The notes beneath the pieces are model-generated. The model was given only the letters and a program-made list of their open reading frames with translations. It was not told where the DNA came from and ran no database searches. A stretch of 64,000 nt of DNA from Candidatus Babeliales bacterium (lineage in GTDB: Bacteria > Babelota > Babeliae > Babelales > Vermiphilaceae): contig CAVUQO010000003.1 of the NCBI GenBank assembly GCA_963743635.1, forward strand, positions 736,001 to 800,000, given 5' to 3'. A program made the translations under genes and the position numbers. Positions 37,673 through 38,086 of this stretch are shown one piece after another. How positions within the stretch are numbered: the stretch's first letter is position 1; each line of letters begins with the position of its first letter.

Positions 37673-38086
37673 ATGAAACCAATGCACTACATAGTTCTAT
37701 TGAATATCCTCGCTACCACAATCGGTTTGCACGCCGGTAGAGGTGGCAGTAACAATAGAAGGCACGGACTTACGTTCCCCACAGCAATAGTTCATCGCTT
37801 TCTGAAGAATAAAAAAGCCACTCGTGGGCGTTGCATATTGCTAGAATCGGAATTAGAATTCGCAAAAATGCAAGTTGGCTCCGAAAACACTGGCAATGTG
37901 AGTGAAAGAAAGAAAGCGCTTGCAGAAAAAAGAGTCGCTGAGGCTAAGGAAGCTGAGAAGAAAGCAACAGAGTTCATTCATATGCTCGATAAGCAGATCG
38001 ATGAAAAAGCTGCCGAAATACTCGCTGCAATGGATCAATTGGCGCTCGAAAACTTAAAAAACTTAGATTTAGAAGGGCTTGATTAA
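37673..38086 (+). CDS. Secreted protein with histone H2A-like N-terminal segment and coiled coil
   Basis: Signal peptide ending GLHA, then GRGGSNNRRHGLTFPTAIVHRFLK; AAGGA RBS. Confidence 0.65.
   Translation: MKPMHYIVLLNILATTIGLHAGRGGSNNRRHGLTFPTAIVHRFLKNKKATRGRCILLESELEFAKMQVGSENTGNVSERKKALAEKRVAEAKEAEKKATEFIHMLDKQIDEKAAEILAAMDQLALENLKNLDLEGLD

Follow-up and report, generated by a model that had tools for sequence, protein, structure and literature searches.

The protein encoded at 37673..38086 (+) of the window, the whole 64-kb stretch of DNA analysed here, appears from sequence comparison and structure modelling to be the carrier of an H2A-like linear motif and not a histone fold. The motif stands behind a signal-peptide-like leader and ahead of a charged helical body, and it recurs with the leader across a small protein family. 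We tentatively read the protein as an exported, host-directed mimic of the H2A motif, a possibility that we judge to be somewhat short of probable, in which the N-terminal peptide would act as an address label and the helical body as a payload or scaffold.

The open reading frame (ORF) is a real gene. It is intact as read from the sequence and encodes 137 residues, its translation reproduces exactly the one given in the original prediction, and we take it as real because it is also accompanied by a Shine-Dalgarno-like site, a downstream hairpin and an NCBI protein 99% identical to its product. It lies between proS (upstream) and an xerC/D-type recombinase gene (downstream). The Shine-Dalgarno-like sequence starts 4 nt past the proS stop codon (37656-37658), and this closeness makes co-transcription of the ORF with proS probable. 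The hairpin itself, at 38118-38155, folds with −22.3 kcal/mol (z −7.8), a stability equalled by none of 200 shuffles, and is likely an intrinsic terminator closing the proS-ORF unit. A consensus terminator scan, which allows loops of at most 8 nt, did not detect this hairpin, probably on account of its 12-nt loop; direct folding revealed it. The features of the gene and its product are collected in Table 1.

Table 1. Positions of the gene features and protein segments within the window
Feature	Residues	Position	Strand	Sequence	Remarks
Shine-Dalgarno-like site		37662..37667	+	GAAGGA	5 nt upstream of ATG; read from sequence
Leader	1-21	37673..37735	+	MKPMHYIVLLNILATTIGLHA	Basic n-region, 14-residue hydrophobic core, L-H-A site
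Spacer	22-31	37736..37765	+	GRGGSNNRRH	Basic, Gly-rich; predicted mature N-terminus
H2A alphaN/alpha1-like motif	32-46	37766..37810	+	GLTFPTAIVHRFLKN	From sequence searches and alignment A2
Charged helical region	47-107	37811..37993	+		AF2 helices 40-70 and 76-119; break ENTGN at 71-75
Variant-a C-terminal block	108-137	37994..38083	+	QIDEKAAEILAAMDQLALENLKNLDLEGLD	From A2; Q108 and L133 invariant
Hairpin, then U-tract		38118..38160	+		13 bp; 38118-38130 pairs with 38143-38155

Relatives of the window protein (P0001) are few. A word-seeded search found only P0002, the 99%-identical NCBI protein, and P0003, which is 41% identical, and a profile search of 1.84 billion protein representatives gave 12 proteins at E<=1e-3. 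One of these, the 475-residue repetitive coiled coil P0012, was set aside as spurious, matching only profile positions 80-132 in the helical part. P0002 was omitted from the alignment as redundant, and the resulting alignment, A2, comprises the window protein and 10 relatives (n=11) that are 24-45% identical to it. Repeating the profile search with A2 added no further members, and 7999 candidates examined for longer fused forms yielded none at E<=0.1, a result of little weight. A scan with the family alignment of a genome collection from which the source genome is absent returned 13 pattern matches, none of them a relative, and 63 proS loci searched with family HMMs and regular expressions held no family member (best E 0.081, a 40-residue ORF). 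The window contains no paralog of P0001 (next best E 0.47). With 11 aligned members, the family appears from these searches to be rare and tiny.

Within the mature protein, conservation is highest in the motif. The original prediction made its H2A-like stretch depend in part on retention by homologs, and the consensus L-x-F-P-x-x-R-[VL]-H-R-x-L is indeed kept in each of the 10 aligned relatives, beginning 5-15 residues past the ..(L/M/I)-(H/Q/Y/N)-A site of the leader. Four residues, F35, P36, H41 and R42, do not vary at all, and L33, R39 and L44 hardly do, position 39 being R in 10 of 11 members and I in the window protein only. The motif thereby holds four of the seven invariant and three of the six nearly invariant columns of A2, and each of these equals the H2A residue. 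In every member but P0009, which has I-x-F-P, the core of the H2A signature reads L-x-F-P (10 of 11). The PROSITE-type H2A pattern is [AC]-G-L-x-F-P-V; in this strict form it is unmatched, the window protein reading H-G-L-T-F-P-T and V following P in none of the 11.

Database searches place the motif on one stretch of H2A. In a phmmer search against the PDB, residues 24-56 of the window protein align to residues 17-49 of 1f66_C (33 residues each) free of gaps, so that the ungapped H2A.Z match claimed from the sequence alone was recovered. The window protein has 44 distinct PDB matches at E<=10, of which 36 are H2A, H2A.Z or H2A.V and the other eight are four thermosome entries, two WTAP entries, ribosomal S6 and eL6. 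Its E-values are marginal: 0.07-1 for native H2A and 0.011 for a ubiquitin-H2A fusion, whose score is inflated by a Gly/Ser linker. With the family profile A2 the histone match becomes significant, as the original prediction would have it, with 199 PDB matches at E<=10, the best 60 of the 199 all being H2A or H2A.Z at E-values from 3.5e-4 (the best) to 2.6e-3. Profile positions 21-50 fall consistently on H2A residues about 13-43.

Members queried singly against the PDB at the same threshold (E<=10) behave similarly, H2A being the top match for five of six. P0004 gave 167 matches (best 60 of 167 all H2A; best E 0.011), P0011 gave 186 (best 60 of 186 all H2A; best E 0.015), P0005 gave 21 (16 H2A; best E 0.013) and P0007 gave 29 (29 H2A; best E 0.17). 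The exception is P0013, with five matches, none to H2A (best E 0.11). The E-values are modest (1e-2 to 1e-4), as with any match of about 15 residues. Since independent and individually marginal members converge on the same 15 H2A residues, the likeness appears, on sequence comparison, to be real and beyond chance at the family level. The copied segment is H2A alphaN/alpha1, about H2A residues 17-36; the copied stretch spans 12-15 residues and belongs to the segment from which buforin II is known.

The resemblance does not extend to the start of the mature protein, where the original prediction had likened GRGG to the SGRGK tail. After the ..HA site, GRG occurs in two of 11 members, GR in four of 11 and M in five of 11, and the profile alignment does not pair this stretch with the SGRGK tail of H2A. 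Family members differ in the length and sequence of the spacer (A2), and its residues 23-31 in the window protein have AF2 pLDDT values below 50.

The leader that had been predicted ahead of the H2A-like stretch bears the features of a signal peptide and is conserved in the family. In the window protein, MKPMHYIVLLNILATTIGLHA is followed by GRGGSNNRRHGLTFPTAIVHRFLKNKKATRGRC. Family leaders begin MK(P/R/L)xx and continue with a hydrophobic core and then (L/M/I)-(H/Q/Y/N)-A|, with a mean hydropathy of 1.4-2.3; the core has 14 residues in seven of nine correctly parsed members and 16 in two of nine. The leader site of P0007 was assigned by eye, and P0013, which lacks most of the leader, is probably truncated. 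Residues Y6, L9 and L10 are nearly invariant and A21 is invariant (A2, n=11), a conservation above what leaders usually show. A basic n-region, an h-region within 7-15 residues and a small residue at −1 are all present, and from these features Sec export with cleavage after ..HA is predicted. A prepilin-type leader was ruled out, there being no pattern of G at −1 or E at +5, as was a lipoprotein, no Cys following the site. The first 18 predicted mature residues have a net charge of 0 to +5 in the family and +3 in the window protein. In E. coli Sec substrates, positive charge early in the mature part is atypical and unfavourable for export.

Beyond the motif the family divides into two forms. 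Variant a, with eight of the 11 members including the window protein, has an ending of the form ..KAAEILAAID-x-S-x-L-x-x-(L/I)-(N/D)-L-E-G-L-D, its free C-terminus following (L/I)-(N/D)-L-(E/D)-(G/A/S)-(L/P)-D and reading exactly LEGLD in five of eight. These conserved last residues suggest a C-terminal recognition signal. The conservation is seen in relatives P0003-P0007, P0009 and P0013. A likeness of LEGLD to the C-terminus of ribosomal stalk P-proteins was rejected by eye for a mismatch in register. Variant b, with three of the 11 members, carries the C-terminal body ASSTQK...ELERETKVKFAD in place of the variant-a block. The window protein and P0011 can be aligned over residues 1-54 only (48% identity), and leader and motif thus form a module set on two unrelated bodies. 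A stretch of about residues 50-80 of the window protein is absent from most relatives (A2).

Structure prediction and domain searches bear out the original statement that the remainder is not a histone fold. The AF2 model of the window protein, made with the family alignment, has a mean pLDDT of 70.6 and helices at residues 3-21 (the leader), 40-70, 76-119 and 122-129, with residues 81-120 at pLDDT 85-94. Residues 22-39 are unfolded, with pLDDT below 50 around the motif, which fits a linear motif. Foldseek of this model against the PDB returned nothing at E<=1e-3 (63 matches at E<=10), and no histone is among the matches listed. Pfam gave no histone domain in any of the 11 members and 21 families, each in one member only; in the window protein these were FloA, FliS, Pus10 THUMP and CENP-R, weak and sub-threshold hits taken as noise. 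The window protein without its motif (residues 45-137) has four PDB matches, none a histone. The variant-b AF2 model (pLDDT 55.8) is too poor to judge its fold. In the ESM Atlas, P0001 and P0011 had no usable feature matches, and the structural neighbours of P0011 all had TM <0.5. A homodimer prediction for residues 22-137 scored 0.01, which counts neither for nor against a dimer.

The lineage of the source organism gives these features their context. The product of proS is 56-72% identical in 39 of 63 fetched loci, which, where named beyond 'bacterium' or 'uncultured Pseudomonadota', belong to Candidatus Dependentiae, Babeliales or Babeliaceae. Archaeal loci make up the rest, apart from a single actinomycete and a partial locus (L062), with identities of 35-47%. 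By these sequence relationships, the organism is placed as a member of Dependentiae. The gene itself, proS at 36237-37658 (+), encodes an archaeal/eukaryote-type prolyl-tRNA synthetase with a ProRS-C_1 domain, and outside Dependentiae its product finds its best matches in archaea (35-41%).

The window encodes five WD40 proteins, one ankyrin protein and one Sel1/TPR protein. Hydrophobic N-termini occur on WD40, ankyrin and Sel1 proteins here, a feature found by a crude hydropathy measure in 22 of 48 window ORFs. In the Dependentiae isolate Chromulinavorax destructans, the available text of PMC6561590 reports signal peptides on 44% of CDS and on 78% of the ankyrin proteins, a Sec system with putative outer-membrane vesicles, and a dependence of putative host-directed proteins on Sec-type signal peptides. 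Given this use of Sec-type signal peptides in a Dependentiae isolate, a secreted mimic of a host protein is plausible. The window offers another example of a eukaryote-like protein with a conserved leader in three tandem WD40 paralogs (397, 555 and 507 residues; 59121-63486, −), whose leaders are nearly identical, MKRIV(I/M)LM..LGLSMSNLQA|MQLA; the listed ORFs of the first two begin upstream of the leader Met.

The mimic that we tentatively favour would work as follows. The protein of this protist-infecting bacterium would be exported by Sec and cleaved at ..HA|, and the mature form would then get to the host, conceivably by outer-membrane vesicles or a type II-like step, though both routes are guesses. 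Its exposed cationic N-terminal peptide would form a proline-capped amphipathic helix, as within H2A, and engage what the H2A segment engages, be it the nucleic-acid backbone, H2B or a factor handling free H2A. As a result, the helical body would be brought to host chromatin, or an H2A-handling factor would be soaked up. In favour of this reading are the motif likeness, its conservation, the disorder, the modularity and the Dependentiae context; that the leader is cleaved off and the protein leaves the bacterium, and that it has a target and an effect in the host, we infer. Of the attributes of a short-linear-motif mimic, motif likeness and disorder are present in the alignments and the model, and host delivery and binding are predicted.

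Several observations count against the mimic. Within H2A, the mimicked segment is folded and in part buried and does not belong to a tail, and we know of no reader for it as a mimic. The early positive residues of the mature protein would hamper Sec export by E. coli rules. In place of the first Arg, which H2A shares with 10 of the 11 members, the window protein carries I39; P0013 alone gives no H2A match, the E-values are modest and the family is tiny.

The identity of the copied segment with that of buforin II, which the original prediction had not drawn, opens a different mechanism, in which the motif would serve through its physical properties and not as a decoy, carrying different C-terminal cargos across a host membrane onto nucleic acids or, in an alternative form, acting as an antimicrobial against competitors. 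Buforin-type behaviour is suggested by the invariant Pro and the Phe before it, by the helix kept after the Pro (A2; in the window protein predicted from residue 40), by the alternation there of I39, V40, F43 and L44 with R42 and K45, and by a net charge of +2 to +7 on the 23-30-residue segment around the motif (n=11). A module common to two unrelated C-termini is likewise what would be expected of a delivery tag. We nevertheless consider such a use rather unlikely: several members are acidic in or beside the motif, at a net +2 to +4, and buforin II is more cationic; a peptide that is active on membranes and binds DNA could, if free in the periplasm, damage its producer; and His and the second Arg are invariant, and we know of no requirement for either in buforin translocation. 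A membrane-crossing tag would be useful to such a bacterium, Sec and vesicles being the only export routes mentioned for the Dependentiae isolate in the accessible part of PMC6561590. That leader and motif form a self-contained delivery tag, taking cargo across a host membrane to host nucleic acid or the nucleus, is distinctly unlikely; if true, it would be an injection route for a bacterium with few dedicated secretion systems and a naturally occurring cell-penetrating tag taken from a histone.

Two further explanations concern origin and location. The protein may descend from an H2A captured from a host or giant virus that gained a leader and decayed until alphaN/alpha1 alone was recognisable, and this account, which concerns origin only, is compatible with any functional reading. 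P0011 shares 11 of 15 ungapped identities with H2A around the motif, and HMMER aligns P0011, as well as the variant-b profile (A3, three members), colinearly with H2A residues 17-104, pairing VEYL with LEYL and KV-x-F-A with KV-x-I-A; the H2A alignment of the window protein continues to residue 78. The docking domain of H2A is reached weakly and by the variant-b alignment only. Yet the extended alignments (19.5-20.8 bits) are no better than the motif-level family profile (24.2 bits), P0011 without its motif (residues 41-149) has a single PDB match, MyoD at E = 1, and the window protein likewise loses every histone match with its motif. Together with the Pfam result and AF2 models that lack a histone fold, poor as the variant-b model is, and with the possibility that a 12-residue motif arose by convergence, this makes the 'captured H2A fragment' of the original prediction quite unlikely. 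Convergence would also underlie a bacterial envelope protein that plays no part in the host, either periplasmic or membrane-anchored with its basic region in the cytoplasm, where the motif might bind the cell's own nucleic acid or phospholipid, for example. Positive charges favour the cytoplasmic side of a membrane (the positive-inside rule), and those following the hydrophobic segment would accordingly be retained there; the unusually conserved leader, the housekeeping neighbourhood and the probable co-transcription with proS point the same way. However, a 14-residue core containing N and T is short for a stable membrane helix, the small-residue ..HA| site is kept across the family, and convergence leaves the H2A match at every conserved position unexplained. 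The 63 proS loci, with no syntenic counterpart downstream, argue against a core housekeeping role, and overall we regard the envelope protein as a fairly unlikely explanation.

Compared with histones H2A and H2A.Z, the window family shares the signature ..R-x-G-L-x-F-P-x-x-R-V/I-H-R-x-L.. with identical spacing, but the bacterial protein lacks the histone fold, the docking domain and a Pfam histone match, and adds a signal-peptide-like leader and a long helical body, ending in LEGLD in variant a. Judged by these fold features in sequence and model, it does not appear to be a member of the H2A family. Buforin II, in the available portion of PMC6801614, is a 21-residue H2A fragment that crosses membranes without lysis by way of a proline hinge, with Pro11 crucial to cell penetration, and then binds DNA and RNA. 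The same H2A segment is present here, with a Phe-Pro hinge and then an amphipathic basic helix. Buforin-type peptides are proteolytic fragments of host H2A and identical to it, whereas the motif here is encoded in a bacterial genome, has diverged at non-conserved positions, is often less cationic and is fused to a body of 60-100 residues.

By analogy, the closest working likeness of the mimic that we favour may be to the histone mimics of pathogens, as motif-level mimicry and not as a histone. The accessible text of PMC12937675 describes an influenza NS1 tail that mimics the H3 tail, the secretion of H3 by Leishmania, and histone mimics that copy tails. Like these, the window protein would place histone-like sequence in a pathogen protein with a presumed action on host chromatin; the known short mimics copy unstructured, modifiable H3 tails, in contrast to the structured H2A segment of bacterial origin considered here. 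Within the phylum, the ankyrin proteins of Chromulinavorax destructans (PMC6561590, as far as its available text goes) similarly combine a Sec-type leader with a eukaryote-like element, but theirs are whole repeat domains, while the window protein has a eukaryote-like motif of 12-15 residues only. No H2A-like secreted protein in Dependentiae or other bacteria is described in the passages returned by a full-text literature search.

Little is known of the ways in which Dependentiae manipulate their protist hosts. The family would be a rare bacterial copy of a histone at motif level, and one of a structured H2A segment in place of a modifiable tail. A decoy role would imply that some host factor recognises H2A alphaN/alpha1 outside the nucleosome; a buforin-like tag would be an instance of a histone-derived cell-penetrating peptide employed in nature for protein delivery.

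Other features of the 64-kb window may be recorded here. No tRNA genes and no Rfam families at gathering score were found in it. Downstream of the ORF, two Cys-rich ORFs at 39118-39528 (−) and 39555-40214 (−) have signal-peptide-like N-termini and no Pfam match, the latter with a run of 10 Asn directly after its leader. The dnaK (Hsp70) gene at 10341-11952 (−) is broken into three frames (11146-11952, 10738-11025 and 10341-10670), reflecting either a pseudogene or frameshift errors in the assembly. GC skew is positive over 1-38 kb and negative over 38-64 kb, with a cumulative peak at about 38000-40000. The switch coincides with the xerC/D-like gene (38185-39099), with dnaN-recF (40630-42846) close by, and the stretch at about 38000-40000 is thus a candidate for the terminus or origin of replication.
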